DNA of 40,838 bases from Flavobacteriales bacterium (GTDB taxonomy: Bacteria; Bacteroidota; Bacteroidia; Flavobacteriales_G; NORP312): the NCBI GenBank assembly GCA_016763645.1, contig JAESTK010000092.1, positions 1 to 40,838 of the forward strand, given 5' to 3'. The translations under genes were made by a program, and so were the position numbers. The stretch's first letter is position 1, and every line of letters begins with the position of its first letter. Below the pieces are notes generated by a model. The model ran no database searches, had not been told where the DNA came from, and saw only the letters and a program-made list of their open reading frames with translations. Of this stretch, positions 375-21,418 are shown in pieces.

Positions 375-1877
375 TTACCCCAAAACCTCAATACCTTTTT
401 TCATTCGACTTAACGACTCTTCTTTACCAATAATTTCCATTATTTCGAAAAGGTTTGGGCCACCACCAACACCAGTGATGGTAAGACGAATAGCAACCAT
501 GGCAATGCCAAAACCTAGTTCGTTATCTTCAACGTATTTCTTAAACGCAATTTCAAGCGCCTCTGAATTAAATGCAGCAACGCCACCAAAAACAGAAACT
601 AAATCGGTAACAATTGATGGAGATTTCTCTTTCCATTTTTTCTTCACCATTTTCTCATCATAAGAGGTTGGCGCGGTAAAAAAGTATGAACCAGCATTAG
701 GGATGTCTTTAGCAAAAGTTACCCGTTCTTTCATTTGATTACAGACCAAGGTCAAAAGGTTAAAGTCAAAAGAAGAGTCTCCTATAAATTCAGCCAATTG
801 GCTGCCTGATTTTGCTTTTAAATATTCTTGATTAAACAATCTTGCTTTATCGGGATCAAATTTCGCACCTGCCTTCCCTACCCTATCGAGCGAAAAAGCA
901 GCAATTAGTTCTTTGATAGAAAAAATCTCTTGTTCTGTGCCTGGATTCCAGCCTAAAAAGGCGAGCATGTTGACAAATGCATCAGGGAAATACCCTTCTT
1001 CTTTATATCCCGTTGAAATATCTCCGCTTTTTGGGTCTTTCCATTCTAGCGGAAAAACAGGAAAGCCTAGTCGATCGCCATCGCGCTTACTTAATTTGCC
1101 AGGGCCATCAGGCTTTAAAATCAAAGGCAAGTGAGAGAAAGAAGGCATAGCATCTTCCCAGCCTAAAAAGCGATATAATAACACGTGGAGAGGTGCCGAA
1201 GGCAACCACTCTTCACCACGAATAACGTGGGTGATTTTCATGGCATAATCGTCAACTACATTTGCTAAATGGTAGGTTGGCATTCCGTCAGATTTGAAAA
1301 TTACCTTATCGTCCATTGTGTTGGTTTGCACGGAAACAGAGCCACGAATTTCATCGGTAAACTTCACTTCTTCATTAGCAGGAACCAATAAGCGAATAAC
1401 ATAGTTCTCTCCTTCACTTAGTTTTGCATCAATTTCATCTTTTGATAGGGTGAGCGAATTATTCAATGTGTCTCTATTTGAAGAATCATAAGAAAAGGTC
1501 TTTTTCTCAGCCTCATATTGCTTACGTAAGGCGTTTAATTCGTCTAGTGTGTCAAATGCATAGTAAGCGTTGCCTGATGCGATTAATTGCTCTGCAAATT
1601 GCGCGTACGAAGCTTTTCTTTCCGATTGTCGATAAGGACCATACTCCCCTCCTACTCTAGGGCTTTCGTCTGGGGTTAATCCACACCACTCTAAAGCGTC
1701 TAACACGTAGTCTTCGGCTCCTTCTACAAAACGGGTTTGGTCAGTGTCTTCAATTCTCAGGATAAAATCTCCTCCATGTTTTTTGGCATATAAATAATTA
1801 TATAAAGCAGTTCTAACACCACCAATATGTAAAGGACCAGTTGGGCTTGGGGCAAATCTTACGCGTACTTTCGACAT
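375..1877 (-). CDS. gltX: Glutamate--tRNA ligase
   Basis: RFAPSPTG-LHIGG (HIGH motif), LRIEDTD, KLSKR (KMSKS equivalent). Confidence 0.98.
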   Translation of the reverse strand: MSKVRVRFAPSPTGPLHIGGVRTALYNYLYAKKHGGDFILRIEDTDQTRFVEGAEDYVLDALEWCGLTPDESPRVGGEYGPYRQSERKASYAQFAEQLIASGNAYYAFDTLDELNALRKQYEAEKKTFSYDSSNRDTLNNSLTLSKDEIDAKLSEGENYVIRLLVPANEEVKFTDEIRGSVSVQTNTMDDKVIFKSDGMPTYHLANVVDDYAMKITHVIRGEEWLPSAPLHVLLYRFLGWEDAMPSFSHLPLILKPDGPGKLSKRDGDRLGFPVFPLEWKDPKSGDISTGYKEEGYFPDAFVNMLAFLGWNPGTEQEIFSIKELIAAFSLDRVGKAGAKFDPDKARLFNQEYLKAKSGSQLAEFIGDSSFDFNLLTLVCNQMKERVTFAKDIPNAGSYFFTAPTSYDEKMVKKKWKEKSPSIVTDLVSVFGGVAAFNSEALEIAFKKYVEDNELGFGIAMVAIRLTITGVGGGPNLFEIMEIIGKEESLSRMKKGIEVLG

Positions 1878-1907
1878 CTTTTAAAATTTTGCGCAAAGAT
1901 AGGAAAG
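1856..1907 (-). repeat. Direct repeat copy 1: gltX promoter and first 7 codons
   Basis: 1856-1877 is identical (22 bp) to 14038-14059; 1892-1907 matches 14072-14087 at 15/16; contains the -7 element TATCTTTG (minus, 1894-1901). Confidence 0.85.
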
Positions 1908-2036
1908 GCGCTAGAAAAAAACGAGTGATTCTTACAATTGGATAGAGAATTTAATTCCGTTAGCATTGCTGTAGTAAGCAAACATTATGAGGATTTATGT
2001 ATTGAGAGAACAATGCTTGTTTGTTAAAGAGTATGC

Positions 2037-2044
2037 TATTTTTG
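2037..2044 (+). promoter_or_regulatory. Bacteroidota -7 promoter element TATTTTTG, 5 nt before the ATG at 2050
   Basis: Matches TAnnTTTG. Confidence 0.55.
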
Positions 2045-2049
2045 CTTAA

Positions 2050-3600
2050 ATGTTTGATTTGACAACAAAAAAATCCAGAATCTTAAAGCTTGCTCTATTC
2101 GCAACAGGATTATCGGGGATAGTTGCTGAGTACATCCTCTCCACTCTTGCTACCTATTTTCTTGGAGATTCCATTTTTCAATGGACTATGATATTATCTA
2201 TCATGCTGTTTTCTATGGGTGTAGGAAGTAGAATTAGTGCTTCGTTTACAGACAAGATTCTAGAGAAATTTTTAATGGCAGAATTCGCTTTATCGTTGCT
2301 TACCTCAACGGCTGCTCTAGGCTGTTATGTAATGATGGGTTACACTAGTTATATCGGGGTAATAATTTATGGGTTTTCAATCGCAATAGGGCTTTTAATA
2401 GGCATGGAAATCCCCTTAGTGATCAGAATAAATGAGGAAAATGAAGATTTAAGAACAAACATTGCTGGAGTAATGGAAAATGATTATTACGGCAGTTTAA
2501 TTGGAGGATTGTTCTTTGTCTTTGTTGGATTACCATATTTAGGACTAACCCATACTCCTTTTCTGCTTGGGGGAATCAATTTCTTGGTTGCCATACTTCT
2601 GTTTTGGAAATTGAAACATCATATTGGAAGTGGCTTCAGGAAAATATGTATGGGGGTTATACCATTGCTTTTTCTCACACTGCTTTTTCTTGGGGTTGGA
2701 GCAGATCAAATTGTTTTACATGGTGAACAAAAGCGGTATGGAGATAAAGTCATTTTCTCAAAGCAAACCCGGTATCAAAAAATAACGATAACGCAATATC
2801 AAGAACACTATTGGCTATACCTCAATGGCAGTAAACAACTATGTACATTTGATGAGTGGCTATATCACGAACCGCTTGTACACCCAGTTATGCATTTAAG
2901 TAAAGATCCTCGGTCTGTATTAATTTTAGGCGCTGGAGATGGGTGTGCTATTCGAGAAGTTCTTAAATACAAAGGAGTTGAGCAAATTACGTTGGTGGAC
3001 ATAGACCCAGAAATGACCAAAATAGGAATGTCAAACCCCATATTTACCCAACTGAATGATAGCGCGTACTACGACCCAAAAGTCAAGGTGGTTAACCAAG
3101 ATGCTTTTCAATATTTAATGGAAACCGATCAATTTTTTGACGTGATGATCCTCGACTTTCCTGACCCAAAAAGTATTGACATTAATCGAGTTTACACCAA
3201 AGAATTTTACCAGCTTTGCAATAAGAAGTTAAGAAACAATGGAGTTCTCGTTACGCAAGCAGTTAGTCCATACTACACTACTAAAGCATATCGATCAATA
3301 GAGAAAACTGTTGCTGCGGCAGGATTTAATTCTTTGGCAATTCACAACCACGTTTATTCATTTGGTGAATGGGGCTGGGTAATTGGTTCAAAAACACTAA
3401 CGTCTGATGAGATTAAAGCAGAGCTGCAAGCCACCTCTTTTGACGATATTGAAACACAGTGGATGACACCAGAATCTATAATATTAATGACCTCTTTTGG
3501 AAAAGATTTACAAGATGCAGATTCGGTGGAAGTTAACACAATTCAAAATCCAGTTCTCTATCGTTACTATCTGGATGGAGTTTGGGCTAGGTATATGTGA
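2050..3600 (+). CDS. speE: Membrane-anchored polyamine aminopropyltransferase (spermidine synthase-like), paralog 1
   Basis: ~7 N-terminal TM helices, then TRYQKI, LYLNG, YHEPLVHP, LILGAGDG, LVDIDP, ILDFPDP, SFGEWG. Confidence 0.9.
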   Translation: MFDLTTKKSRILKLALFATGLSGIVAEYILSTLATYFLGDSIFQWTMILSIMLFSMGVGSRISASFTDKILEKFLMAEFALSLLTSTAALGCYVMMGYTSYIGVIIYGFSIAIGLLIGMEIPLVIRINEENEDLRTNIAGVMENDYYGSLIGGLFFVFVGLPYLGLTHTPFLLGGINFLVAILLFWKLKHHIGSGFRKICMGVIPLLFLTLLFLGVGADQIVLHGEQKRYGDKVIFSKQTRYQKITITQYQEHYWLYLNGSKQLCTFDEWLYHEPLVHPVMHLSKDPRSVLILGAGDGCAIREVLKYKGVEQITLVDIDPEMTKIGMSNPIFTQLNDSAYYDPKVKVVNQDAFQYLMETDQFFDVMILDFPDPKSIDINRVYTKEFYQLCNKKLRNNGVLVTQAVSPYYTTKAYRSIEKTVAAAGFNSLAIHNHVYSFGEWGWVIGSKTLTSDEIKAELQATSFDDIETQWMTPESIILMTSFGKDLQDADSVEVNTIQNPVLYRYYLDGVWARYM

Positions 3601-4661
3601 TGTGGTTATTCGGACGAAATCTAGATTTACTAGCCCTTTTCATCCCAGTGTGGGTAATCTGGGCACTTCTTTTTTGTCTACCGGTAGAAACGCTTGATAC
3701 GGAAATTCCTCTTTGGGCCTGGGTAGTTGGTGTTTTAATGATTGATGTTGCCCATGTTTGGAGCACTACTTTTCGAACTTATTTCGATAAAGAAGAGTTT
3801 TCAAATCACAAGCAGCTTCTCGGGCTTACGCCTATCATTTGTTTTGTAATTCTGTTTACGCTAGCAAGCGAGTCGGTTGAGTGGTTTTGGCGGCTACTGG
3901 CATATTTGGCACTGTTTCATTTTATAAAGCAGCAATATGGGTTTTTTGCCTTGTATTCTGTAAAATCGGGAGCAATAAAAGTAAAACGCTACATTTCCGA
4001 CAAACTCACAATCTATTTATCGATGCTCTATCCTGTTTTATTCTGGCACCTCAATGTCCGAAAATTTAGTTGGTTTGTAGAAGGCGATTTTTTTCAATTT
4101 CACGTAGATTCAGCGCTCGTCTGGTCAGTATTAAATTACGTTTATTGGCTAATTATTTCGGGGTGGTTGGTGGATGAGATTAGATTAATAAAACAGCAGA
4201 AGATTCATTTTTCAACGGGCCGAATCTTATGGTTGTTTACGACAGCTTTCAACTGGTACTTGGGGATCATCTATTTCAATTCAGATCTTGCTTTTACCTT
4301 AACCAATGTTGTCGCCCATGGCATTCCGTATATAGCTTTGGTTATTTACTATCAAGCGACAAAAGAAACACGGACTTCTTCCAATAAGCGACCTTCAATT
4401 TTGATTATCGGATGTGTGATCATAATTGGATCCTTACTATTTGCGTTTGGAGAAGAGTACCTATGGGATCTCTTTCTCAATCAAGACAAACAGGAATTGT
4501 TCGGCTCGTGGATTTCGTATCCTGAAATATCAAACCCCAGACTTCAAGCTATTGCCTTAGCGTTGCTTTCGTTACCACAAGTTGTACATTACGTGCTTGA
4601 TGGCTTTATTTGGAAAATGAATGATACGAACCCTCACCTTAGAAATATGATGAATGAATAG
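3597..4661 (+). CDS. Polytopic membrane protein with four His motifs (putative membrane metalloenzyme)
   Basis: ~8 TM segments; DVAHVWST, LFHFIKQQYG, VAHGIPY, VVHYVLDGFIW; start overlaps the upstream stop. Confidence 0.75.
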   Translation: MMWLFGRNLDLLALFIPVWVIWALLFCLPVETLDTEIPLWAWVVGVLMIDVAHVWSTTFRTYFDKEEFSNHKQLLGLTPIICFVILFTLASESVEWFWRLLAYLALFHFIKQQYGFFALYSVKSGAIKVKRYISDKLTIYLSMLYPVLFWHLNVRKFSWFVEGDFFQFHVDSALVWSVLNYVYWLIISGWLVDEIRLIKQQKIHFSTGRILWLFTTAFNWYLGIIYFNSDLAFTLTNVVAHGIPYIALVIYYQATKETRTSSNKRPSILIIGCVIIIGSLLFAFGEEYLWDLFLNQDKQELFGSWISYPEISNPRLQAIALALLSLPQVVHYVLDGFIWKMNDTNPHLRNMMNE

Positions 4662-6153
4662 AAGAGCATTCATAAAAATAGGGACACTTGTTTTTGCTGT
4701 TGGCGTTGGTTGTAGATCAGAAAAATCAAGGGAACATTCAAGTAGCTACGCGATTACGATTGACTCAAACCGATCGATTGGTCACCTTGCTCGGAATTCA
4801 TTTCTCCATAGTGTCTCAGAAGAAATAAAAACTGATGTTCTTGTGGTCGGGGCGGGAATTGCAGGTATGGCTGCGGCATGTTCTCTACAGCATAGGGAGG
4901 TTATTGTCTGCGACTTAAACCCTAGGCTTGGAGGCACTTCTGGGGCAGTTACCATTGGAAATCAACAATTTTCTCAAGGAGCGTATTACGACATGTCTTA
5001 TCCTGGATACTATGGGAGTGATGGACTTAAACTATTAGAATCTCTAAAGGTAATAACGTATAACAAAACCTTAGATCGATGGGATTTTATAGAGAAACAA
5101 CACCTGATTAGTTTAACAGCAGAGGAACGGTGCTATCGAAATGGCGGGCTCGATGCATCGGTATTAATGGATTCCGAATTGAAGCAAAACTTTCTAGATT
5201 TGTTGCGCCCGTATTCTGGAAAAATGGTACTCCCTTCAAGCGAAATAGGGTTGGATAGTATACGATTAGATCATTTAACTTTTTCTGAATATTTAAACAA
5301 ATACCTTCCTGTAAATTCTGATTTTATGGAGGCAATCGATTACCAAATGATGGACGATTACGGAGGAAAAAGTGATCAAGTATCTGCTTTAGCGGGAATT
5401 CACTATTACCGCTGTCGTCCGTATTACCAGAAACCAGAACCAGAAATACTTTCACCCACCGAAGGCAACTATTATTTCATAAATAAAATGGTAAACCAGT
5501 TGAGTTTGGAACAAATTAAACTAGACAGCCTTGTAGTTGGAATGGAAAAACTAAAACAAGGATGGGGTGTTGATGTCTGGGAAGTAGCAAACGATAGAAA
5601 AGTTAGATACAAGTGTAACAACGTAATATACGCAGGTCAAAAACACCTCTTAAAGTATTTGCATCCAGAATCATACAAGACCTTTAGCGATGTAAAATAC
5701 GCCCCTTGGATTGTCATAAACATTGAGTTGCAAGGAGAGTCTATCGACAATGATTTTTGGCAAAACGATTACCTTTCTACAAATGCTCAGTTTCTTGGAT
5801 TTGTGAACTCACGAGCGCAAACCAAAGAGGGCAACCGTGTATTAACAGCGTATTATTGTTATCCTGACATCTACCACCATATGGTGCAGGATTTGGAAAA
5901 CGGAGCACGTGAAATCGTAGAACAAACAATTGGATTTATCAATACTTATTTCAAAAAGGACCTTGAACCTTTTATCAAACACGTTTACGTGAAATTACTG
6001 GGCCACGCGATGCCGGTTCCTGTGCCCAGATATCTAAGCAAGAAAAGGCAATTAGAACAAAATGGACTTTCGTTTGCCGGGGCAGACACAGGAAGGTTAC
6101 CACTGATGTTTGACGCCTTAGATTCGGGTATTCAAGCAGCTAAGAGAATTTAA
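4654..6153 (+). CDS. FAD-dependent oxidoreductase (amine oxidase-like) with Tat/lipoprotein signal
   Basis: MNRRAFIK twin-Arg, VGVGC lipobox-like motif, VLVVGAGIAG dinucleotide-binding motif, RLGG, GHAMPVP, FAGAD. Confidence 0.85.
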   Translation: MNRRAFIKIGTLVFAVGVGCRSEKSREHSSSYAITIDSNRSIGHLARNSFLHSVSEEIKTDVLVVGAGIAGMAAACSLQHREVIVCDLNPRLGGTSGAVTIGNQQFSQGAYYDMSYPGYYGSDGLKLLESLKVITYNKTLDRWDFIEKQHLISLTAEERCYRNGGLDASVLMDSELKQNFLDLLRPYSGKMVLPSSEIGLDSIRLDHLTFSEYLNKYLPVNSDFMEAIDYQMMDDYGGKSDQVSALAGIHYYRCRPYYQKPEPEILSPTEGNYYFINKMVNQLSLEQIKLDSLVVGMEKLKQGWGVDVWEVANDRKVRYKCNNVIYAGQKHLLKYLHPESYKTFSDVKYAPWIVINIELQGESIDNDFWQNDYLSTNAQFLGFVNSRAQTKEGNRVLTAYYCYPDIYHHMVQDLENGAREIVEQTIGFINTYFKKDLEPFIKHVYVKLLGHAMPVPVPRYLSKKRQLEQNGLSFAGADTGRLPLMFDALDSGIQAAKRI

Positions 6154-7682
6154 TAAAGATCCCAATTTGCGTTGAGTTGATACCGATAGAGCACAGGATC
6201 ATTAATTGTATTGATTTTGATCTCACTAGTATCAGCTAATGGCTTTCCAAAAGATAACATCATATCAACCGATTCTAAATTAAGCCAGCGTGTATTAACT
6301 TTTGGAAAATCAGGATCATGTAACAAGTGCGTCATTTCTTCTACCGTGAAACGCTTTGAACCAAGTATCCAGCCCCATTCACCCATCGAAGGAATTTGAT
6401 TGTGCAGTTTCAATGTTTCGAAACCAGAACTTTTCATTGTTTTATTGATGCATTCATACGCCCGCGTTGCGTAATACGGACTACCTGCTTGAGTTATTAT
6501 GTGGCCATTTGGTCTTAAATGTAAGTGGGCCATGGCGTAGAACTCCCTCGTATACAGCTTGTTCAAATCAACACCTTTTGCATCAGGTAAATCGACAATA
6601 ATAACATCGTAAAAGTCCTTTGTATTCTGTACGTAAACGAAGCCATCTTCGTTTAGAACGCGAACCCGAGCGTTATGTAATGATGAGTCATTTGCAAGTA
6701 CAACGGGTAGGTAACCTTTCCCAATTGAAGTCATTTCTGGATCGAGATCAACTATGGTTATACTTTCTACATCATCATATTTCAAAAGCTCCTTGACATT
6801 AAAACCATCACCACCCCCAATAATCAAAATATCTTTGCGCTCTTTGCTAATTTGCATGATTGGATGGATCATTGGTTCGTGATAAAGAAACTCATCTATG
6901 GTGCTCAATTGCAGATTTCCATTAATGTAGAGCCAATAACTATCCAACCAAGTAGTAATCACTATTTTCTGATATTTAGATTCCTTTACAAAAACGATCT
7001 TGTCTTTGTATCTATTTTGCTCTCCGTAAAGCATTATCTGATCTGATTTCAAGAATCCGAATCCAAGTATAAAAACAACTAGAACTCCAATTCCAAGAAT
7101 CCACGATTTGTTCTGCTTTTGTTCTTTCCAATAGGATAAGAGGAGCAGTGTTGCAGCCAAAAAGTTTAGCAAACCAAACAGAAATGCAGTATTCTTAATT
7201 CCCAAATGAGGAAGGCCCCAAAAAGCGAATGCAAGACCCCCAACTAAGCTCCCAACATAATCCCAAGATAACACACTCGACACATTGGTATTGATGTCTT
7301 CAAACTCTTCGTTTAATCTGGTAACTAATGGTATTTCGAATCCAATACACAATCCGATTAAAGCACTTAATCCGTATACCACGATGTGAATATATTGAGT
7401 GTATCCAGCTATACTATAAACAACTAATGGAGAGATACAGATAAGAACGGATAAACCAAATTCAATTAATAGAAACGTCTGTAATACATTGCCTTTGATG
7501 TATCTACTTAGTTGACTGCCTATCCCCATCGTAAAGAGCATAACGGAAAGAACGATCGTCCATTGAACAATTGTGTCTCCGATAAAATAAGAAGCTAGAG
7601 TTGATAATATAAACTCAGAAACTATACCTGAGATGCCCGTTGCAAATATTGCTGTTTTTAAAAAATACGAACGGAGTTTCAA
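6150..7682 (-). CDS. speE: Membrane-anchored polyamine aminopropyltransferase, paralog 2
   Basis: Same architecture as 2050-3600: SKYQKI, LYINGNLQ, YHEPMIHP, LIIGGGDG, IVDLDP, IVDLPD, SMGEWG. Confidence 0.9.
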   Translation of the reverse strand: MKLRSYFLKTAIFATGISGIVSEFILSTLASYFIGDTIVQWTIVLSVMLFTMGIGSQLSRYIKGNVLQTFLLIEFGLSVLICISPLVVYSIAGYTQYIHIVVYGLSALIGLCIGFEIPLVTRLNEEFEDINTNVSSVLSWDYVGSLVGGLAFAFWGLPHLGIKNTAFLFGLLNFLAATLLLLSYWKEQKQNKSWILGIGVLVVFILGFGFLKSDQIMLYGEQNRYKDKIVFVKESKYQKIVITTWLDSYWLYINGNLQLSTIDEFLYHEPMIHPIMQISKERKDILIIGGGDGFNVKELLKYDDVESITIVDLDPEMTSIGKGYLPVVLANDSSLHNARVRVLNEDGFVYVQNTKDFYDVIIVDLPDAKGVDLNKLYTREFYAMAHLHLRPNGHIITQAGSPYYATRAYECINKTMKSSGFETLKLHNQIPSMGEWGWILGSKRFTVEEMTHLLHDPDFPKVNTRWLNLESVDMMLSFGKPLADTSEIKINTINDPVLYRYQLNANWDLY

Positions 7683-7683
7683 G

Positions 7684-8547
7684 TTACGAGAAACTCATGC
7701 AAATCAACATCGCACCACCAACATAACCAAAAGCCTCAATTACTCCAGCTCCGACATTTGGTTTTTCCTGATTAACAATTTCGTCTGTAAGTTTTCTCCC
7801 GGGTAATAAAATCTTATCGGTAAGTACACGTGCCAACGGCAGCATCAATAGACCGATCCCAGTTTCCATACCAAGATTTTCAACTACTTGTATCCAAGAT
7901 TCAGCATCAATCTGGGCGCCATGGCGAATCAATATAGCTATAGCAACCATAGCTCCGGCATAGCCTACTCCTACGGCAACGTTGTCTTTTTCGATGTGTT
8001 CATGAATGTCGTAAGGCGTAATCCAATTGTAAACGATTGACACCAACAATAAAAAAACCTGAGACACCCCCCATAGACCGATAATGCCAAGGTAATTGTC
8101 TGGATTTTCTGCCATTACACCGTGAATAATTAAACCATTTGCAACACAAATAGCTCCCTCGATTACTCCAGTTCCAACGTTTTGATCTTCTATAATTTCT
8201 TTCCGAAGATCAAATTTTCGAAGAATAAATTTATCTGTAATAAATATGGAAACGTTAAGAAGAACAATTGCCAATAGACCAAATGTCATTATTTCAATAA
8301 GGTTGTCGACAATGTGACCAATGTCATCGCCCTCATATAAGCTGGCAATTGCTATTAACAACCCAATGTAGTATCCTACGTTTGCAAACGCAAACGCTAG
8401 GTTATCTTTTTCAACCAATTCGTGGTCAATGTCAATTTTCTTGTTGACTAGTTTATAAAAATACTTCCCGATAAAAAATAGCGCAAAACTCGCTAATAAA
8501 TAAATGAGTGCAGTAAGTACCCCGTCTAATGTCGCTAGAATATCCAT
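7684..8547 (-). CDS. DUF350 (YjfL-like) membrane protein, tandem-domain form
   Basis: Four repeats EKDNLAFA, EDQNVGTG, EKDNVAVG, EKPNVGAG, each between TM helices. Confidence 0.8.
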   Translation of the reverse strand: MDILATLDGVLTALIYLLASFALFFIGKYFYKLVNKKIDIDHELVEKDNLAFAFANVGYYIGLLIAIASLYEGDDIGHIVDNLIEIMTFGLLAIVLLNVSIFITDKFILRKFDLRKEIIEDQNVGTGVIEGAICVANGLIIHGVMAENPDNYLGIIGLWGVSQVFLLLVSIVYNWITPYDIHEHIEKDNVAVGVGYAGAMVAIAILIRHGAQIDAESWIQVVENLGMETGIGLLMLPLARVLTDKILLPGRKLTDEIVNQEKPNVGAGVIEAFGYVGGAMLICMSFS

Positions 8548-8561
8548 GTTTTACTTTTTAT

Positions 8562-9251
8562 TTATTTACCAAATCCTGAACTTCTTCCTGAATGCCCTGA
8601 TCTGCCCCGGCTACCACTCCAACCAGACCTTGATGACTTTCTCGCAAAGAAATCTGGGCGTGATTTTCGCGTTCCAGCAGAACTGGTTCCATACTTCGAT
8701 TTTCCGCCCGTTTTAGGGCCATAATACCCCTTGCTTCCATAATACCCACCACGGTACGAGGAATAATCACTGCGGTATATTGGTCGGTGCATCATTCCAA
8801 ACATTTGGGACATAAACATATATTGTCCATAAAATGCCCAAAAAGAAGTGCCATTGTTGTTTCTCCACTCTCCATATCTTCCATTACCAACATACTGATA
8901 ACCTGGAGGAGAGACATTTTTTTCTAATTTTCCGTCCTTTTTATAACAAAGAGTCATGCCCAAATTTTCTTCGTTGGCCCAGAAAAACTTTTCATCAACT
9001 TCTTTCCAAGCACTTTTTGTTTCAACGGGAGTTCCTTCCGAATCTTCAAGTATAACCTTGTACTGATGTTTGTAGGTTTTAAAAAATCTCCCCTCAACAT
9101 CCATATTCTCTAATATAATTGCAAAGTTCTGTTGATCAGAATACTGACTTATATAGTCGTCAACTGGAGATTTTACGAACGCTCGTCCTCCACAGCTAAC
9201 GAAAACCATTGCAGCGAAAACTAGAACCGAAATATTTAAGATCTTATTCAT
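8562..9251 (-). CDS. Lipoprotein with Gly/Ser/Arg/Tyr low-complexity C-terminal tail
   Basis: Lipobox VFVSC; YGEW..NNGTSFWAFYGQY motif; tail ...SRGRSGHSGRSSGFGK. Confidence 0.8.
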   Translation of the reverse strand: MNKILNISVLVFAAMVFVSCGGRAFVKSPVDDYISQYSDQQNFAIILENMDVEGRFFKTYKHQYKVILEDSEGTPVETKSAWKEVDEKFFWANEENLGMTLCYKKDGKLEKNVSPPGYQYVGNGRYGEWRNNNGTSFWAFYGQYMFMSQMFGMMHRPIYRSDYSSYRGGYYGSKGYYGPKTGGKSKYGTSSAGTRKSRPDFFARKSSRSGWSGSRGRSGHSGRSSGFGK

Positions 9252-9272
9252 GTTATTACTCGTTAATTACGT

Positions 9273-9803
9273 TTATCTAGGCAATATGTTTGAGAATTCT
9301 ATCTCTTTAACATAGCTTCCTTTGGCCGCTGAAAAATCTTCTTCACCCCATCTGTCTATGGAGATAAAATTTTCCCCATTTTCAAACATCCAATTTACAA
9401 ATTTAGCATAATCTTCTTCATTATCGCGTTCTTCTCCACAGTGTCCTTGACCAGAGGAAGTCCTTGTGTATGTAATGTTCTGGTGAACTATTTGTTGCGG
9501 TGCGTCATCCTGATCTACAATCTGTTTAACCAGACCAGCATCAATGTCGCGTATCTCGATCTTCTGTGAGAGCGAGCAGACCAATTTGTCTTCATCTTCT
9601 ACATGAAGATAGTACGTTTCTTTACCTGAGTCTAAAAGGTATTCTCTCGTTTCAAGGTTGTTTCCCCAGTCGTACAGGTAAACTTTTTTTACTTCCCATG
9701 TTTCCATGAAATAGTCGACCATATAACCGACTCCAAGCTCGTTAACAGTATAATTTATCTGCGCTTCTTTTGTCTTTTTTTTAAATCTATCGAATAAACC
9801 CAT
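9273..9803 (-). CDS. DUF4178-like protein
   Basis: Acidic beta-rich 176 aa protein with W.V...Y.W...REY.L pattern; amphipathic N-terminus MGLFDRFKKK; operon context. Confidence 0.65.
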   Translation of the reverse strand: MGLFDRFKKKTKEAQINYTVNELGVGYMVDYFMETWEVKKVYLYDWGNNLETREYLLDSGKETYYLHVEDEDKLVCSLSQKIEIRDIDAGLVKQIVDQDDAPQQIVHQNITYTRTSSGQGHCGEERDNEEDYAKFVNWMFENGENFISIDRWGEEDFSAAKGSYVKEIEFSNILPR

Positions 9804-9810
9804 AGTATTA

Positions 9811-10647
9811 TTATTTGTGAATTTTTTGGCCGCAATGGTCGCATGTTAGATCGTGCGATTCCGGCTCATCGTTTTGTTTATCATTATCAGTTGGTTTTTC
9901 GATTACCTTACCGAATCCATTTGCTAAAATTCCGGCAGGTAAAGCAAACAAACCAACGCCAAGAATTGCCATTATTCCTCCAATAAATTTACCTAAAGAA
10001 GTTATAGGATATACATCGCCATAACCAACAGTTGTTAGCGTTGCAACTCCCCACCACATGGTAGCAGGAATACTCGAAAAGGCTTCTGGTTGGTCATCGT
10101 GCTCTATGTAGTACATTAAACAAGAAGAAATTACAAGCAGCATTAATACACCACATAAAGATATCACCAACTCTTCTTTAGCACCGTTCATAACTTGCCT
10201 AATCTGACTAAAGGCTTTATTGTACCTCGATAATTTCAATAGTCTAAAAAGCCTAAGTACTCGAATTCCTCGAATTACTCGTGAGTCTACGGTAATCAAA
10301 AGAGGAATGTACGCAGGAATAACAGCCGCTAAATCGATTAAGCTGTAAAAAGAGAACATATATTTTAACCGACCACGAAATGGAGGGGAATACTTTTCTT
10401 TCTCAGTAATTGACCAAATTCTCAACAAGTATTCAACGGAAAAGAAAATGATAGAAAATGTTTCTATATTTGAGAAAAGTAGTCCGTAATCTTCTCTCAT
10501 CCATTGGACTGATTCTAGAATTACAGCCACAATATTCAACAGTATAAGGAGGATTATAAAAATGTCGACCCGCTTGCTCCAGGTGTCGTTTTCCTGGCCT
10601 TTTTCAAGAATCTCGTAGGTGCGTCTTTTAATATTTTGATAACTCAT
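9811..10647 (-). CDS. Voltage-gated-type potassium channel (6TM)
   Basis: TTVGYGD selectivity filter; S4-like IRGIRVLRLFRLLKLSRY; C-terminal CDHC. Confidence 0.92.
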   Translation of the reverse strand: MSYQNIKRRTYEILEKGQENDTWSKRVDIFIILLILLNIVAVILESVQWMREDYGLLFSNIETFSIIFFSVEYLLRIWSITEKEKYSPPFRGRLKYMFSFYSLIDLAAVIPAYIPLLITVDSRVIRGIRVLRLFRLLKLSRYNKAFSQIRQVMNGAKEELVISLCGVLMLLVISSCLMYYIEHDDQPEAFSSIPATMWWGVATLTTVGYGDVYPITSLGKFIGGIMAILGVGLFALPAGILANGFGKVIEKPTDNDKQNDEPESHDLTCDHCGQKIHK

Positions 10648-11011
10648 GCCCCGCTTCTTTAAATTGAAGATTCCCTCTCTTTATGGTCTGGTAACTATGG
10701 GTGTTTGATTTCAATTTTAGGACTAGCAGATTATATGCTTGGTTATAGTCCATATCCTGATTGCAGGTGAAAAAGTCAACTGCAGCGTAGCCGTGCTCCG
10801 GCCACGTGTGGATTGCTAAGTGACTTTCTGAGACTACTATTACGCCTGTTATCCCTTGCGGGGAGAACTTATGAAAAACTGATTTGATTATTGTTGCTTT
10901 CGAAACTAAGGCTGCATCGTTCATGGTTTGCTTGATCTCCTCTAGATCGTCAAGCGTTTTTGAGGGGCAGTCATGAAACTCCATTAAAATGTGCAATCCC
11001 AATCCTTCCAT
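10628..11011 (-). CDS. speD: S-adenosylmethionine decarboxylase proenzyme
   Basis: HKFSPQGITGV, SESH pyruvoyl cleavage site, HTWPE, DFFTC; start placed at ATG 11011 (MEGLGLH) rather than 11059. Confidence 0.95.
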   Translation of the reverse strand: MEGLGLHILMEFHDCPSKTLDDLEEIKQTMNDAALVSKATIIKSVFHKFSPQGITGVIVVSESHLAIHTWPEHGYAAVDFFTCNQDMDYNQAYNLLVLKLKSNTHSYQTIKRGNLQFKEAGHELSKY

Positions 11012-11015
11012 GAAA

Positions 11016-11216
11016 TTAATCCTTAGATCTAAAAAATTTGTACCAAATGTATACCCCAATTAATATTATCGCAATTGGAAGTATGAATTTTAGCGCTAAT
11101 TTGAATAACCACCAAGCCACCGTGAGGAGCCCTACTACGAATATGATCTGTATAATCGTTGATTTTTTCACTCGAATCTTACTTTTAATTATTGGAGGAA
11201 GATCGCCTTCCTCCAA
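11016..11216 (-). CDS. Small two-TM membrane protein (start may be GTG at 11171)
   Basis: Hydrophobic hairpin with basic ends; fills the gap between pspA and speD. Confidence 0.7.
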   Translation of the reverse strand: MEEGDLPPIIKSKIRVKKSTIIQIIFVVGLLTVAWWLFKLALKFILPIAIILIGVYIWYKFFRSKD

Positions 11217-11234
11217 TGTGTGGATATAAAGTTT

Positions 11235-11948
11235 CTAAGCCTCTTTGGATTTACTCATTTTAGCTTTAAGTGCGGCTAGACTATCAGATGCTGCAACAGT
11301 GGTACTTCCTCCAATTGCTTTATCAATTTCATCATCAAGCGATTTGCTTTCATTTGCTATGTCCCCGTAGGCGTCAGCCAATGCTTCTTCTTGCTCCACC
11401 TTCTCTTTCATTCTTTCGAGCATCGAAATTGTGTCACTCGAATCAATTGAAGCCATTTGTTTGTTGAGGTTTTTGGTAGCGGTAGCAACTTTGACTCTTG
11501 CCTTAAGTGTTTTAAGCTCATTTTCCCAAGAGCTAATTTTAGAGCGTAACGTTTTTACGTTTACTTCTAACTTACTAACGTTTTGGTCAAATTGAGTTTG
11601 CTCTCCTGAAGCTCTTTCAACATGAGTTTCACATTCCACTTTTTTGTTTAAAGCCTCAGTAGCCAAACGATCAGCCTCTGCGCTATCCATTTGCCCTGAT
11701 TCAGCTTTTTGAAGTAACAACATGGCCTTTTTTTCATAATCAACCCCTCTTTCTTGTTGTTCTCTAATTTCGTTGCGGGATCTAATAGCAAGGGCTTTTA
11801 CTTCTGCCATCGCTTTCAAACAACCTTCAAGATCTTTTTTCATATCTCTAATGCCTTGCTCAGTCATTTTTATTGGGTCTTCTAATTTATCTACCACCGC
11901 ATTAGCTTCGGCTTTTCCCAATGTGAATAATCTTTTAAATAAACTCAT
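11235..11948 (-). CDS. pspA: PspA/IM30 family protein (bacterial ESCRT-III-like)
   Basis: MSLFKRL amphipathic helix, LEDP.KM.EQ.IRDM, LA.EAL, long coiled coil, LAALKAKM C-terminus. Confidence 0.93.
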   Translation of the reverse strand: MSLFKRLFTLGKAEANAVVDKLEDPIKMTEQGIRDMKKDLEGCLKAMAEVKALAIRSRNEIREQQERGVDYEKKAMLLLQKAESGQMDSAEADRLATEALNKKVECETHVERASGEQTQFDQNVSKLEVNVKTLRSKISSWENELKTLKARVKVATATKNLNKQMASIDSSDTISMLERMKEKVEQEEALADAYGDIANESKSLDDEIDKAIGGSTTVAASDSLAALKAKMSKSKEA

Positions 11949-11961
11949 TTTTTTGTCCTCC

Positions 11962-12357
11962 TTATTTTTTTGAAAATTTGATTAGCTCATCAGCGTACTC
12001 TGTTAAAAGTAAGCTCAACGAATTCAATGATCCTTCTATTTCGTTCATGTCTAGGTTCTCAATTTGAAGAGTATCTCTGAATATTACCTTCGTTCCAGTT
12101 TCGTCTAGAACAAATGCGCCATGAATAATATCACGGTTTTTCATTAACAAGCTTCGAAATACTTCACCTGAATCGCCATTGAGCTCCAGAATGTGTTGTT
12201 CCATAATTAAGATGGGGTCAGCACAGCCAATCGCGCAATTTTTGATTCCAGACGACTCGTCTTCTATAATGATTATCTGATCCTCTTCATTAGCAGCAGT
12301 AATCGTATATCCCAAGTCTAAAACGTAGTTTTTAACGATGTTGAAATTATCTTTCAT
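11962..12357 (-). CDS. CesT/YbjN-like chaperone-fold protein
   Basis: Acidic 131 aa; LL.KN....HGAF.LD....VIFRDTLQ.ENLD pattern; first gene of the pspA operon. Confidence 0.7.
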   Translation of the reverse strand: MKDNFNIVKNYVLDLGYTITAANEEDQIIIIEDESSGIKNCAIGCADPILIMEQHILELNGDSGEVFRSLLMKNRDIIHGAFVLDETGTKVIFRDTLQIENLDMNEIEGSLNSLSLLLTEYADELIKFSKK

Positions 12358-12391
12358 TGAATTGTAATTTTAAATTTTCGATTTACTTCTT

Positions 12392-12399
12392 CAAAAGTA
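12392..12399 (-). promoter_or_regulatory. -7 promoter element TACTTTTG for the pspA operon (second candidate TATGTTTG at 12512-12519)
   Basis: TAnnTTTG matches on the minus strand. Confidence 0.45.
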
Positions 12400-12519
12400 A
12401 TTATTTACACGAAATAATAAGGCCCTGAGGTTCAGTAAACCGAAATGCTAAATCATTATTTTCGTTGGTTAATATTAGTTTGAATTATTTTGTTTTTATC
12501 AATCGACAGGACAAACATA

Positions 12520-12583
12520 CTAAAAATATTAGCACAAACTAATTTATTTGGCTAATTATTTTATTTATTGCAAAATATTTTAG
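12520..12583. promoter_or_regulatory. Four CTAA-N5-TTAG palindromes, putative XRE operators
   Basis: CTAAAAATATTAG 12520, CTAATTTATTTGG 12539, CTAATTATTTTAT 12552, CAAAATATTTTAG 12571; spacing 19/13/19. Confidence 0.55.
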
Positions 12584-12613
12584 TAATTTGTCATTATTCA
12601 CAACAGGTTATGC

Positions 12614-13339
12614 ATGTCTAAAATAGGGTCTAATATTCGTAAAATACGCTTAGTTAAAGGACTTAGCCAATCTGCTTTTGGCAATTTGTTTAATCTGAAG
12701 AGAGCTAATATTGGTGCATATGAGGAACTTCGTGCAGAACCGAAGATAGATGTAGTAATCGAAATTGCTAAATATTTTAGTGTTCCGTTAAGTGATATTT
12801 TCACAAAAGATTTGACGGTAAATCAATTGACGAAGTTTAGTGCTGCTGAAGATATGAAATCAACTCAGCGGCAAGAAAAAACAGAAAATTACTTTTCGTT
12901 AGGTCATATTAGCGCAGAATTATTGATGAATCGTATTAAACTTTTTGAACAACTAGAAAAAGATAACATTCACCAAATACAATTCCCAAAAGTTGTTGAC
13001 CATGCAGATAAATTCTTTGAAATCAAGGGGGTACTAATTCTTGGTGCCAAGAATCAGCAATATCATGGGCTTATTTGTTCAAGTATCAGGCAGGGGGTTA
13101 AAAGCATGATTGTGCTTGTGTTGTCTGATAAAAGGATTGCTCTTGGAGAATATTTAGGAGGTAAAGAAAAGGTAACAATTAAACTTCAAGACTCGCAAGA
13201 GGAGACTATAATTGAAGATGTGAGGCAGTTGTTTGAAGTTAAATTAATGGTTTCTCAGCCAGGTACTCAATCAACCAATATTGCACAAAGATTATTGACC
13301 ATTGAAAAGCGCGTTAACAATCTCGAAGGAAAAAGCTAG
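12614..13339 (+). CDS. XRE-family HTH transcriptional regulator
   Basis: NIRKIR..KGLSQ..F..L....R..IGAYEE.RAEP HTH; divergent from the pspA operon. Confidence 0.9.
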   Translation: MSKIGSNIRKIRLVKGLSQSAFGNLFNLKRANIGAYEELRAEPKIDVVIEIAKYFSVPLSDIFTKDLTVNQLTKFSAAEDMKSTQRQEKTENYFSLGHISAELLMNRIKLFEQLEKDNIHQIQFPKVVDHADKFFEIKGVLILGAKNQQYHGLICSSIRQGVKSMIVLVLSDKRIALGEYLGGKEKVTIKLQDSQEETIIEDVRQLFEVKLMVSQPGTQSTNIAQRLLTIEKRVNNLEGKS

Positions 13340-13905
13340 TCTTTATCCGTGTTAAATAGGTAGCCAAGAGCCCCTCCACAAAGTCCCCCGAAAATATGTC
13401 CAAATTGAGAGATGTTGTCAATTGAAAAGCTGTTATAGATCTCTTTCCCTAAATAAATTACTACTATAAAGATAAAGGTAAGGGGAACTTCTTTGGCCCT
13501 CATATTTACTATTGAAGATAAAATGATGAACATAAACACGATTCCGCTAGCTCCGATTATGCCACTATTGAAGAGCAGTGCATTAAGTAGGCCCGTTGAT
13601 ACAGCCGTTATAACTGTCATTAAAGCAAGATTTTTAGCACCATATTTTTCTTCCAAAATAGGCCCAAGCATCAATAAATAAAAGAAATTCCCTAAGAGGT
13701 GGTCAAAATTAGCGTGACAAAAAATGTAGGTTACTAGCCTATAAATCTGACTAGTTTGAATAACAGGATTTAAAGAAAAAAGATGATTTATTAAGCCGCC
13801 AAACGCCAAGTTTAGAATTAACATTGCAAACGATATGAGACAAAAACTCAAAGTAAATTTTGCGTTATAGGTAATCGACCAACTTTTAAAAGAATTGATT
13901 TGCAT
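13336..13905 (-). CDS. Rhomboid intramembrane serine protease
   Basis: YRLVTY.F.H, HLLGN, GASG (catalytic Ser), GHIFG (catalytic His). Confidence 0.92.
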   Translation of the reverse strand: MQINSFKSWSITYNAKFTLSFCLISFAMLILNLAFGGLINHLFSLNPVIQTSQIYRLVTYIFCHANFDHLLGNFFYLLMLGPILEEKYGAKNLALMTVITAVSTGLLNALLFNSGIIGASGIVFMFIILSSIVNMRAKEVPLTFIFIVVIYLGKEIYNSFSIDNISQFGHIFGGLCGGALGYLFNTDKD

Positions 13906-14037
13906 GCTTTTCCGTTGAAGTTATTTGTTCATGGTTTTGTCTTTGTTGCGGTTGCAAGTTAAGAATAACTTGACGTGTAAATTTCGGTTTGATTGGGACC
14001 TTGTGCGATCAATATATGATCTACGTAGTTTGGGACC

Positions 14038-14087
14038 ATCTTACGCGTACTTTCGACATTACTCAAATTTTCGCAAAGAAAGGAAAG
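14038..14087 (-). repeat. Direct repeat copy 2: vestigial gltX 5' end (MSKVRVR then WSQTT*) with a decayed -7 element
   Basis: 22-bp identity to 1856-1877 plus a CGCAAAGA.AGGAAAG match; mini-ORF 14059-14021. Confidence 0.85.
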
Positions 14088-14098
14088 ACATCGTGAGT

Positions 14099-14581
14099 TC
14101 ACGACTTGTTTAGCATCCCCTTCTTGTTAGCCCACCAACCAAACCAAAATATAAGACTGGTTGCTAAAACCATAAAAGCAATTCCGCCCAACCTTTTATT
14201 TCTTTTGGTGTTTTTGTAAGGAATTATGATAGTGTCATTAACAGAAACTTGGACGCATTCGAATTCGTTCGAAGCCTTATGCTTTATAGAACCGTAGACA
14301 GTAATTTTTGACTTGGCGGAAAGCTTATTTAACATGTAAGAGTTGACTCGTAGCGCTCCGAGAAAAGGTTTATAAATAAGGCTATCATTCTCTAATTTAA
14401 TAGAAATGAATTTCTTCTTAGGTTCATCAATTATTTCAGCGGTTGAAATTATGCCCGAACGAATTTCATAATCCTCTACTGTCATTAGTGAGTCGTGGAA
14501 AAATGACAGACCTAAAAGAAGCCAAACGAGCCCAATCGCAAAAACAAGCAATACGGCAATGATATTTTTCAAAAGCGTCAT
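14099..14581 (-). CDS. Hypothetical membrane protein (two TM helices flanking a soluble domain)
   Basis: 160 aa ORF; start overlaps the SSS gene stop. Confidence 0.7.
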   Translation of the reverse strand: MTLLKNIIAVLLVFAIGLVWLLLGLSFFHDSLMTVEDYEIRSGIISTAEIIDEPKKKFISIKLENDSLIYKPFLGALRVNSYMLNKLSAKSKITVYGSIKHKASNEFECVQVSVNDTIIIPYKNTKRNKRLGGIAFMVLATSLIFWFGWWANKKGMLNKS

Positions 14582-16254
14582 TTCGGCACTCTTATCTCCC
14601 TCACTAAATCAATAACATGTTGAGGTGGTGCAGGCGTAAAATAAGAAACCACACCCGTTACTAAAAAGTTAATGAGCATACCTAACGTGCCAATTCCTTC
14701 TGGCGAAATGCCTAACCACCAATGTTCGGCAGAGTTATTTTCGGGAGAAACGAACTTAAAATATACGATATACGCAATGGTAAATAGTAGGCCCGAAAGT
14801 ATACCAGCAATCGCTCCTTCCTTGTTAATTCGAGTAGAGAAAATGCCCATTACAATGGCAGGGAAGAAAGAAGCAGCGGCTAACCCAAAAGCCAAGGCAA
14901 CCACTTGAGCCACATACCCGGGAGGGTTTATACCGAAATATCCTGCAACTAAAACAGCTCCGCCCGCAGCGATTCTCGCTAAGCGTAATTCTTGTTTTTC
15001 GGTAATATCTGGTTTTATCTGTTTCTTCACTAAATCGTGAGCCACAGCAGTAGAAACAACCAAGAGTAAACCAGCCGCAGTTGAAAGCGCTGCAGCTAAC
15101 CCTCCAGCAGCGACTAAACCAATAACCCAATTAGGCAGTTTGGCTATTTCTGGATTAGCTAAAACTATAATGTCACGATCTATCGTTACTTCGTTTTGCC
15201 CAGCATCTTTTACATATTGAATTATGCCATCGTTGTTCTTGTCTTCGATTTTAATTAGTCCTGTTGTTTCCCAGTTTTTCACCCATGTAGGGCGTTTTTC
15301 GTATTCAACTTCACTTACTGACTGCATCATGTTTAATCGTGCGAAAGCGGCTATGGCAGGCGCTGTTGTGTAAAGAATAGCAATAAAAATTAAAGCATAA
15401 CCCGCAGAAACTCGGGCATCACGCACTTTAGGTACGGTAAAAAACCGAACAATTACGTGTGGCAATCCCGCTGTGCCGACCATCAGCGCAGCAGTAATAA
15501 AAAAGACATCAATAGTAGATTTTGTACCATCTGTGTAGGTTCCAAAACCTAATTCTTCTGACAGCCCATCTAGCTTATCGAGCAAGAATGTACCGGGTTC
15601 ATTTATGAGTTCTGAGCCAAAACCAATTTGCGGAATTGGGTTGCCCGTCATCATTATTGAAATATAAATCGCAGGGACGAGAAAGGCGAAAATCAAAACG
15701 CAATATTGTGCCACTTGGGTATAGGTAATACCCTTCATCCCTCCTATTACGGCATAAAAGAAAACGATAGCCATTCCGATAATTACTCCGATGTGTATGG
15801 GAACATCCAAAAACCGAGAAAACACGACCCCTACTCCACGCATTTGTCCTGCTACGTATGTAAACGAGATGAAAATTACACAGACAACGGCAATAAATCG
15901 AGCGACTTCAGAATAGTATCTATCTCCGATAAAATCGGGCACGGTAAACTTCCCGAATTTTCTGAGATAAGGAGCAAGTAATAACGCTAAAAGAACATAG
16001 CCTCCAGTCCAACCCATTAGGTAAACTGAGCCATCTCTGCCAGAAAAGGAGATGATACCAGCCATAGAAATAAACGATGCTGCCGACATCCAATCTGCCG
16101 CAGTTGCTAATCCATTCGCTAAGGGAGAAACTTGACCATGAGCGACATAAAAGTCTTTAGTAGATGAGGCTTTCGACCAAATGGCAATTCCAATATAAAC
16201 AGCGAAACTGAGCCCCACCAAAATAAATGTCCATGTTTGAATGCTCCAATCCAT
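14578..16254 (-). CDS. Sodium:solute symporter, ActP/VC_2705-like cation:acetate symporter
   Basis: NGLATAADWMSAASF, GGMKGITYTQVAQY, GTAGLPHV, AALST; paired with a DUF4212 gene. Confidence 0.93.
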   Translation of the reverse strand: MDWSIQTWTFILVGLSFAVYIGIAIWSKASSTKDFYVAHGQVSPLANGLATAADWMSAASFISMAGIISFSGRDGSVYLMGWTGGYVLLALLLAPYLRKFGKFTVPDFIGDRYYSEVARFIAVVCVIFISFTYVAGQMRGVGVVFSRFLDVPIHIGVIIGMAIVFFYAVIGGMKGITYTQVAQYCVLIFAFLVPAIYISIMMTGNPIPQIGFGSELINEPGTFLLDKLDGLSEELGFGTYTDGTKSTIDVFFITAALMVGTAGLPHVIVRFFTVPKVRDARVSAGYALIFIAILYTTAPAIAAFARLNMMQSVSEVEYEKRPTWVKNWETTGLIKIEDKNNDGIIQYVKDAGQNEVTIDRDIIVLANPEIAKLPNWVIGLVAAGGLAAALSTAAGLLLVVSTAVAHDLVKKQIKPDITEKQELRLARIAAGGAVLVAGYFGINPPGYVAQVVALAFGLAAASFFPAIVMGIFSTRINKEGAIAGILSGLLFTIAYIVYFKFVSPENNSAEHWWLGISPEGIGTLGMLINFLVTGVVSYFTPAPPQHVIDLVREIRVPK

Positions 16255-16505
16255 TATTCGTCAACGTTATGTTTTTTATCGAGGCGGTTCATCAAGTAAA
16301 CATACACGAAAATGAGTGCCACAAAAACATAAATAGATCCTTGTTGTGCAAACCAAAATCCAAGTTTGAAGCCTCCAATTCTAATGGTGTCGAGTTCGTC
16401 AACAAAGAGAATTCCACAACCAAACGAAACAGCAAACCAGACAATAAGAAGCACCAGAAGATACTTTAAGTTGGTTTTCCAATATTGTTGCGCGGTGTTG
16501 CTCAT
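16254..16505 (-). CDS. DUF4212 small membrane partner of the SSS transporter
   Basis: YWKTNL...LLIVWFAVSFG, GFKLGFWFAQQGSI. Confidence 0.9.
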   Translation of the reverse strand: MSNTAQQYWKTNLKYLLVLLIVWFAVSFGCGILFVDELDTIRIGGFKLGFWFAQQGSIYVFVALIFVYVYLMNRLDKKHNVDE

Positions 16506-16529
16506 TCAGGTTGTGAATGTAAGAAATTT
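16446..16529 (-). repeat. Direct repeat copy A: DUF4212 5' end and upstream DNA
   Basis: 16446-16505 vs 17235-17294: 49/60 identical; similarity continues ~25 nt upstream of both ATGs. Confidence 0.85.
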
Positions 16530-17294: not shown

Positions 17295-17320
17295 TTCAGG
17301 TCGTGAATGTATGAAAATTT
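17235..17320 (-). repeat. Direct repeat copy B of the DUF4212 5' end
   Basis: Encodes MSNTARQYWETNLKYLVILL vs MSNTAQQYWKTNLKYLLVLL (16/20 aa). Confidence 0.85.
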
Positions 17321-17349: not shown

Positions 17350-17430
17350 AATCTCCCTAGCCAGTCCGAATATATTCGGAGTATCCAAGAAGGATTTCTC
17401 CCTTAGAAAAGGGAGTTAGTGGGATTGATA
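17350..17430. repeat. REP/MITE-like palindromic element (family A)
   Basis: Outer imperfect IR AATCTCCCTAGC/GTTAGTGGGATT; inner hairpins TCCGAA-TATA-TTCGGA and CTCCCTT-AGAA-AAGGGAG; right part repeated at 1-29. Confidence 0.7.
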
Positions 17431-20179: not shown

Positions 20180-20184
20180 TCGTG

Positions 20185-21315: not shown

Positions 21316-21343
21316 TTATCAAAAGTAGAATAAATAATCCAAT

Positions 21344-21418
21344 AATAAGTAGTTATTTTCGGAATGAAATCGAAAAATAAGTAGTTATTTTCGGAATGAA
21401 ATCGAAAAATAAGTAGTT
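21344..21418. repeat. 32-bp tandem repeat, ~2.3 copies (AATAAGTAGTTATTTTCGGAATGAAATCGAAA)
   Basis: Units start at 21344, 21376 and 21408 (partial); the first two are identical. Confidence 0.9.

Follow-up and report, generated by a model that had tools for sequence, protein, structure and literature searches.

In a 40,838-nt contig of an uncultured Flavobacteriales bacterium, a block of 13 genes for a membrane-stress and polyamine system that includes PspA lies upstream of gltX, the gene for glutamyl-tRNA synthetase, and is bracketed by two copies of the gltX promoter and first codons. The window that we analysed is this one whole contig (JAESTK010000092.1, C35) of the assembly GCA_016763645.1 (G000), a metagenome bin of 3.31 Mb in 361 contigs that is 92% complete. 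The 12.1-kb block was probably gained horizontally and inserted, without a recombinase, onto the promoter and start of gltX, with a long target duplication. The insertion, the duplication, the foreign origin of the block and the lack of a mobility gene were established by the comparisons, and the molecular route is the part that we infer.

The start of gltX is present twice in the window. An exact 22-mer, consisting of gltX codons 1-7 and 1 further nt, occurs at 1856-1877 and again at 14038-14059, as a preliminary description of this DNA, made from the sequence alone, had reported. Two matches were obtained in 0 of 100 dinucleotide shuffles, and the 3.31-Mb assembly contains just these 2 copies (up to 3 mismatches allowed; the reversed-pattern control gave 0). 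The full duplicate found by BLASTN pairs 1856-1907 with 14038-14087 over 52 columns, 46 of which are identical (88.5%). On the promoter side, the local alignment scored 36 against 13.1 +/- 2.1 for shuffled sequences, a score reached by 0 of 2000 shuffles, and it takes in the copied -7 region (15/16 positions) that had also been noticed earlier. On the gene-body side beyond the core, by contrast, the score of 12 (shuffles, 13.7 +/- 2.3) was reached by 1742 of 2000 shuffles, and thus there is no similarity. This likeness on the promoter side, together with its abrupt end at the core on the gene-body side, defines the duplicated unit as gltX -30 to +22. The copies are spaced 12,182 bp apart and the intervening sequence (1908-14037) is 12,130 bp long.

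The proximal copy (1856-1907, minus strand; 52 bp) comprises gltX codons 1-7 and 1 nt (1856-1877) plus positions -1 to -30. Its -7 box, of the Bacteroidota type, is intact (TATCTTTG at 1894-1901, minus strand), and this copy serves gltX itself (375-1877, minus strand), which encodes a protein of 500 aa (Pfam tRNA-synt_1c, 1.7e-89, and Anticodon_2) and is the single match in the assembly. The distal copy (14038-14087, minus strand) is an orphan with the same 22 nt of the gltX start and positions -1 to -28. It carries a 1-nt deletion, and its -7 box is altered to TTTCTTTG (14074-14081). The open reading frame (ORF) that begins in it (14021-14059, minus strand) is a stub of 12 codons, MSKVRVRWSQTT, followed by a stop. 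The earlier remarks that the distal box had decayed from TATCTTTG and that the distal frame stops after 12 residues were accordingly correct.

Two relatives carry the locus without the block, namely G002, of the same genus, and the metagenome contig L046, and these two are the only empty-site comparators. In G002, the gene order is abhydrolase, DUF4212, sodium:solute symporter (SSS), a 573-aa pentapeptide/ion-channel protein and gltX, with one copy of the segment and no block gene; SSS is 94% and gltX 89% identical to the window in aa sequence, the latter over the 253 residues present on the G002 contig. In L046, the order is SSS, a 130-aa YycE/glyoxalase-like gene and gltX, again with one segment copy and no block (SSS 95% and gltX 90% aa identity). 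The outer flanks of the window locus are collinear with G002 on both sides. The three genomes part after the SSS residues RVPK and rejoin at about -30 of gltX: past RVPK (window 14578-14581, L033 17021-17033, L046 1296-1308), SSS ends with the stop here, with AKQ in G002 and with GRE in L046. The interval between SSS and gltX is a variable slot that has its own occupant in each genome. Its conserved left anchor is the symporter gene (14578-16254, minus strand; Pfam SSF). Besides the insert, the slot of the window holds an orphan gene for a 160-aa protein with two transmembrane segments (14099-14581, minus strand), the start of which overlaps the SSS stop codon (ATGA); of the 68 genomes of the order, G000 is the only one in which this protein was found (0 of the 67 others). 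The preliminary description had expected close relatives to carry SSS and the 14099-14581 gene upstream of gltX. The first holds in both relatives, but the 14099-14581 gene is in neither of them.

Both window copies align to the single segment of L046 from the same point (L046 1971/1972). The distal copy is identical to L046 1972-2022 at 48 of 51 positions, and the proximal copy, which belongs to a longer alignment with L046 1971-2972, matches in 47 of 52 columns (hand count). These empty sites support the earlier proposal that the block was inserted at the 5' end of gltX and that promoter and start stayed intact on the side of the gene. The upstream flank of neither copy resembles L046 or G002, and thus the native copy could not be told by its flanks. 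A scan of a genome contig collection for the exact core gave no match, and in the metagenome collection the core was matched exactly once, in L046. A promoter 21-mer common to the proximal copy and L046 also occurs exactly before unrelated genes in four distant Bacteroidota records (L055-L058), among them response-regulator-like starts, and resembles a strong, generic type of Bacteroidota promoter module. The promoter likeness of the copies is therefore partly generic consensus, and the duplication claim rests on the 22-mer and its fixed register to the promoter stretch.

The distribution of the block differs from that of its host lineage. A search for PspA in the rest of the family (G001, G002 and G003, three genomes that are 82-94% complete) gave no match; 8 of 40 relatives have the gene, as do 16 of the 400 genomes sampled across the class. 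The class-wide tally takes in one unpublished genome, on which no other result depends. By far the best match is G102, a genome of another order (69% complete), in which all 13 block genes are present with order and orientation kept. A single BLASTN stretch of 11,888 columns, with 75.3% nt identity, covers 2055-13887 of the window, from the first to the last block start codon. The block proteins of G102 are 68-89% identical to those of the window, whereas its gltX product reaches just 58%. Within the order, G023 keeps the gene order of the block minus Ion_trans and G034 has a shorter version (41-81% aa identity). In the identity matrices, PspA of G000 is 76% identical to both G034 and G023, equal to the value between those two, whereas GltX of G000 is an equidistant outgroup to them at 58-62%. 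The boundaries of the unit are alike in G102, G023 and the window, and the neighbours are unrelated in each: a pyridoxal-phosphate (PLP) decarboxylase and hypothetical genes in G102, a PALP enzyme and a glucosaminidase in G023. No gltX-like fragment (up to 5 mismatches) was found beside the other block copies, no flanking repeats in G102 or G023, and no integrase among the scanned ORFs that flank the block in these two genomes. Since the other carriers have no gltX-like fragment, the 52-bp segment is local rather than part of the travelling unit. Judging from these sequence comparisons, the block evidently is of foreign origin, was gained horizontally and moves as a unit.

The claim that the PspA-polyamine system between the copies encodes no recombinase was upheld. 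All 13 ORFs of the block were annotated with Pfam and NCBIfam, with Atlas neighbours used as leads only, and 0 of 13 matched a recombinase family. No transposase family (Pfam) and no restriction or methyltransferase family was matched by the block ORFs either. Tyrosine recombinases of PF00589 have 14 matches genome-wide, with 0 on this contig. The ends of the block showed no inverted repeats beyond chance (score 17 versus 15.4 +/- 2.2 for shuffles) and no further direct repeats. The sole tRNA gene of the window lies at 29649-29723, 15 kb from the block, and Rfam gave no match at the junctions. DNA transposons thus differ from the block, which has neither terminal inverted repeats nor a transposase and is flanked by a duplication of 52 bp.

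The locus has the structure of a class of events, insertion with long target duplication, on which Nobusato et al. reportedly worked in 2000. As the available text of the survey by Furuta, Abe & Kobayashi (2010, PMC2853133) describes the class, the insert is shorter than 20 kb and has no mobile genes, the repeats exceed 30 bp and align to the empty site, and the duplication often spans a translation start, so that the target gene is left intact. Here, the insert measures 12,130 bp and the duplication 52 columns, both repeats align to a single copy in L046 (with a single copy in G002 as well), no mobility gene is present at the locus, and the repeat spans the start of an intact gltX. The locus differs from the surveyed cases in its cargo, which is PspA/polyamine rather than restriction-modification, and in its host, an uncultured Bacteroidota lineage in which the copies have diverged (46/52). 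In the part of the survey available, restriction and modification gene content is a limit of its scope and does not belong to the structural definition. Because the cargo is of another kind, the idea put forward there, that DNA breakage by the cargo itself drives the event, is inapplicable to this block.

In the scenario that we propose, the lineage would have acquired the 12.1-kb block ready-made, with its PspA/CesT-Tir membrane-stress genes, polyamine enzymes, channel, regulator and rhomboid protease. The block would have entered the rapidly changing slot that separates the SSS transporter operon from gltX, landing exactly on the gltX promoter and start. It would have been joined to the chromosome at two points separated by 52 bp, near gltX positions -30 and +22, and the 52-bp stretch would consequently stand on both sides of the insert. 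Since gltX is essential, only outcomes in which promoter, start codon and gene are contiguous would survive; selection would retain the gene-side copy and the far copy would be left as a decaying orphan, which may now feed transcription into the rhomboid gene. The earlier suggestion of short-homology integration is thereby kept in a broader form, in that a recombinase-free insertion, by short homology or otherwise, is the best reading, with the mechanism itself inferred.

Two routes to such a structure were considered. A one-step capture, in which staggered illegitimate joints or template switching would copy the recipient's own target, is a plausible candidate that falls somewhat short of being probable. 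It is favoured because the other carriers have no copy of the segment, because both copies are L046-like and because a second, similar event lies 2.4 kb away. Campbell-type single-crossover integration, or insertion-duplication, is used in the laboratory, and for RecA-type exchange a perfectly identical stretch of 22 bp is at the lower limit. A crossover of this type, with a circularised DNA fragment of a close relative in which both block and segment were present beforehand, is a doubtful alternative. It would likewise leave a promoter and truncated 5' end on the far side, a promoter and whole gene on the near side, and sharp fragment ends, but it requires a circular donor already equipped with the 52-bp gltX segment, and neither such a donor nor an intermediate was found. 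The proximal copy has TTTTAAAAG where the distal copy has the L046-like TTTGAGT, a difference that fits a promoter arriving as a different allele, either by a Campbell crossover within the 22-mer or by later allelic replacement.

Several observations weigh against recombinase-free insertion with target duplication as we describe it. The two copies are not simply decayed twins: the distal copy and L046 share the 5'-untranslated variant TTTGAGT, at which TTTTAAAAG in the proximal copy forms a clustered 9-nt difference from L046. On its sequence, the proximal promoter would be easier to explain as another allele, brought by a Campbell-type event or by later allelic replacement, than by a one-step duplication followed by point mutation; the promoter box region of the proximal copy is identical to that of L046. 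A perfect 22-mer beside a diverged stretch also looks like an att site. A test for heterogeneity of the mismatches (0/22 versus 10/34, Fisher p = 0.004) was set aside, because the mismatches cluster into about 3 events. The empty site is known from only two relatives, and on synteny alone a single loss in their common ancestor would be compatible with what is seen. Neither base composition nor codon usage independently marks the block as foreign: GC3 (the G+C content at third codon positions) is 0.349 in the block and 0.331-0.354 in the flanking genes, an equal or larger codon distance was obtained for 11% of random gene sets, and the contrast between inside and outside that the preliminary description had suggested as a check did not appear. 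A donor whose block is nearly identical is not known; the closest reaches 75% nt identity. The published class, as far as the available text of PMC2853133 goes, was defined on restriction-modification cargo, unlike this block. Finally, the assembled Logan contigs of four runs, on which the read evidence rests, showed among the joints listed no junction intermediate, no empty-site joint (1877 to 14059) and no back-joint of a circle; such contigs drop rare forms, and thus the lack of empty-site or circle joints in them says little.

According to the strongest rival, what remains in the block is the cargo of a site-specific integrative element that targeted the 5' end of gltX and brought its own promoter and start, the integrase having been deleted or acting in trans on a cis-mobilisable element. 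Elements of this kind exist: SXT/R391 elements integrate at the 5' end of prfC. The dusA-specific genomic islands (Farrugia et al. 2015, PMC4482086) likewise enter a housekeeping protein gene at its 5' end. Both kinds of element resemble the gltX locus in targeting a gene 5' end, restoring the start and leaving a short identical core at both junctions. The resemblance covers the exact 22-bp core with less similar sequence on its flanks, the position at the 5' end of a housekeeping gene whose promoter and start are restored by the gene-side copy, and the proximal 5'-untranslated region, which is unlike that of the empty-site relative, as if borne by the element; moreover, 14 tyrosine-recombinase matches are present elsewhere in the genome. 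However, the islands and SXT/R391 elements, as far as is known, always have their own tyrosine integrase beside the junction and excise as circles, whereas the gltX locus has no integrase, no recurrent targeting of gltX in relatives and no sign of excision in the assembled contigs of the four runs, which drop rare forms. No recombinase is encoded in the block or on the 40.8-kb contig, the block copies of G102 and G023 have no gltX fragment, flanking repeat or integrase (flanking ORFs scanned), and 0 of 24 scanned nearest upstream neighbours of gltX in the order are recombinases (24 of 29 loci; 5 short ORFs were left out). The neighbouring DUF2490 event described below is built in the same way, and its insert, at about 0.7 kb, is too small to have held an integrase. 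A site-specific element is thus unlikely, and the att-like form of integration put forward in the preliminary description finds no support.

A second rival, which we regard as improbable, places the block and its repeats in the ancestor of the genus, with loss through the repeats in the ancestor of G002 and L046, or else explains the distal copy as an independent promoter duplication recruited for the rhomboid gene. In the genes of this locus, G002 and L046 are about 90% identical in nt sequence, whereas each is about 81-82% identical to G000; this mutual closeness means that the two count as one sister lineage, for which a single loss is enough. The composition of the block, which is that of its flanks, also fits ancestry. 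As for recruitment, the stretch from the stub to the rhomboid start has no canonical TAnnTTTG box, and the orphan promoter could therefore be used. Nevertheless, PspA was not found in G001, G002 and G003, the block is nearest to that of a genome from another order, and the relationships of PspA are incongruent with those of GltX. If the promoter had been duplicated independently, it would also be a coincidence that the two repeats enclose precisely those genes which move together in other genomes.

A false join through the 22-mer in a metagenome bin is very improbable, even though the window is a whole contig of a fragmented, incomplete assembly and begins inside a dispersed repeat, because a Logan contig from run X1 that matches 12460-14139 perfectly runs across the distal junction, depth stays level at both junctions, the 22-bp repeat is shorter than the usual final k-mers and the locus is flanked on either side by sequence collinear with G002. 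The Logan contig pieces listed do not include the proximal junction, and X1 may be the source sample, in which case its support is not independent. In run X2, one Logan contig (depth 2.8) connects position 13973 with position 14062 of the other strand, beside a hairpin with a 7-bp stem at 13956-13973; it may be a chimeric unitig.

The inserted block (1908-14037; 13 genes on both strands) begins with a seven-transmembrane (7TM)-fused polyamine aminopropyltransferase (2050-3600, plus strand), a conserved protein that was assigned to no family (3597-4661, plus) and a flavin adenine dinucleotide (FAD)-dependent oxidoreductase (4654-6153, plus). A second 7TM-fused aminopropyltransferase follows on the opposite strand (6150-7682, minus); the two synthases match PRK03612 with 557 and 534 bits (cut-off 472). 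The minus strand further encodes DUF350 (7684-8547; Pfam 9.4e-56), a lipoprotein-like protein of 229 aa (8562-9251), DUF4178 (9273-9803; Pfam 1.4e-20), a potassium-channel-like Ion_trans protein (9811-10647; Pfam), S-adenosylmethionine (AdoMet) decarboxylase (10628-11059), PspA (11235-11948; PspA_IM30, 4.8e-45) and the adjoining CesT_Tir_1 (11962-12357; 8.4e-54). An HTH_3 regulator (12614-13339, plus) and the rhomboid protease (13336-13905, minus) complete the block. The 229-aa protein had no Pfam or NCBIfam match, and its Atlas neighbours, a lead only, are named as a lipoprotein family (0.97).

The content of the block matches, almost gene for gene, the CesT/Tir-PspA operons described by Ravi et al. 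(2024, PMC11237479). In the available text of that study, these operons encode a 7TM-spermine/spermidine synthase, DUF350, a lipoprotein (the Ctha_1186 domain) and DUF4178, with variants that include AdoMet decarboxylase, polyamine oxidase and a potassium channel. In the window, CesT_Tir_1 and PspA are adjacent, and the synthases, DUF350 and DUF4178 are all present. Compared with the operons as given there, two synthase paralogues, the HTH_3 regulator and the rhomboid protease here join the block as a 13-gene unit, the mobility of which is not taken up in that text.

A second, older event of the same design is found 2.4 kb from the gltX event. Two copies of the DUF4212 start region, each about 90 bp long and 78-86% alike, flank the DUF2490 gene (16542-17294, minus strand), which is missing from this site in G002. 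The gene-side copy (16434-16521, minus strand) belongs to the DUF4212 gene at 16254-16505, and the upstream copy (17226-17317, minus strand) is 79% identical to G002 15075-15165. The first ~24 codons of the DUF2490 gene (MSNTARQYWETNLKYLVILLVFWV) are the upstream copy of the DUF4212 start, and the relatives of DUF2490 align only from about residue 19-59 onward; the duplicated start could perhaps act as a signal or membrane segment of DUF2490. A screen of the genome for start-duplicating repeats yielded 82 same-strand pairs 200-40,000 bp apart. Besides gltX, two other pairs were inspected and rejected, one being tandem paralogues (C217) and the other an intergenic repeat (C73). The 16-nt seed of the screen missed the DUF4212 pair, and the screen is thus insensitive.

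Among the 24 relatives scanned within the order, 9 have a DUF4175 gene, in divergent orientation, as the one nearest to gltX on its upstream side. Here, the DUF4175 gene lies at 22460-25852, 20.6 kb from the gltX start, compared with 6.9 kb in G002, which shows that the interval upstream of gltX grew by gene gain. The genes between the two are mostly co-oriented with gltX, and the picture suggests long-term accretion in this interval; no further relic copies of the gltX segment were found. We tentatively suggest, while thinking it unlikely to hold in full, that in this genus the zone upstream of gltX receives repeated recombinase-free insertions onto gene starts, which copy the promoter and first codons, and that the orphan copies are reused, as a possible promoter for the rhomboid gene and as an N-terminal membrane or signal segment of DUF2490.

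The locus is a clean, datable case of a complete 13-gene stress system moving between Bacteroidota orders and settling before an essential gene without an integrase, a transposase or a tRNA site, and without silencing gltX. It carries insertion with long target duplication past restriction-modification cargo, the structural class itself being already published, as the available text of PMC2853133 shows. Of the two adjacent start-duplicating events, one gave rise to a chimeric protein start, and the gltX locus could be used to search for the mechanism. In practical terms its value is modest, a warning to annotators that genuine islands can lack an integrase and lie between duplicated gene starts.

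A third difference from G002 lies at 19859-22444, between a DinB-like gene and the DUF4175 gene, and consists of genes for an AAA_14/DUF4143 ATPase and a Fic-domain protein; no flanking repeat was found at this difference. In addition, a 29-nt dispersed repeat occupies positions 1-29 and 17402-17430 of the window and is also present in C34, C45, C70, C115, C192, C293 and C328. The assembly holds 9 copies of it (up to 5 mismatches), several of them less than 100 nt from contig ends, including the one at the first base of this contig. The repeat probably breaks the assembly and is probably unrelated to the gltX duplication.

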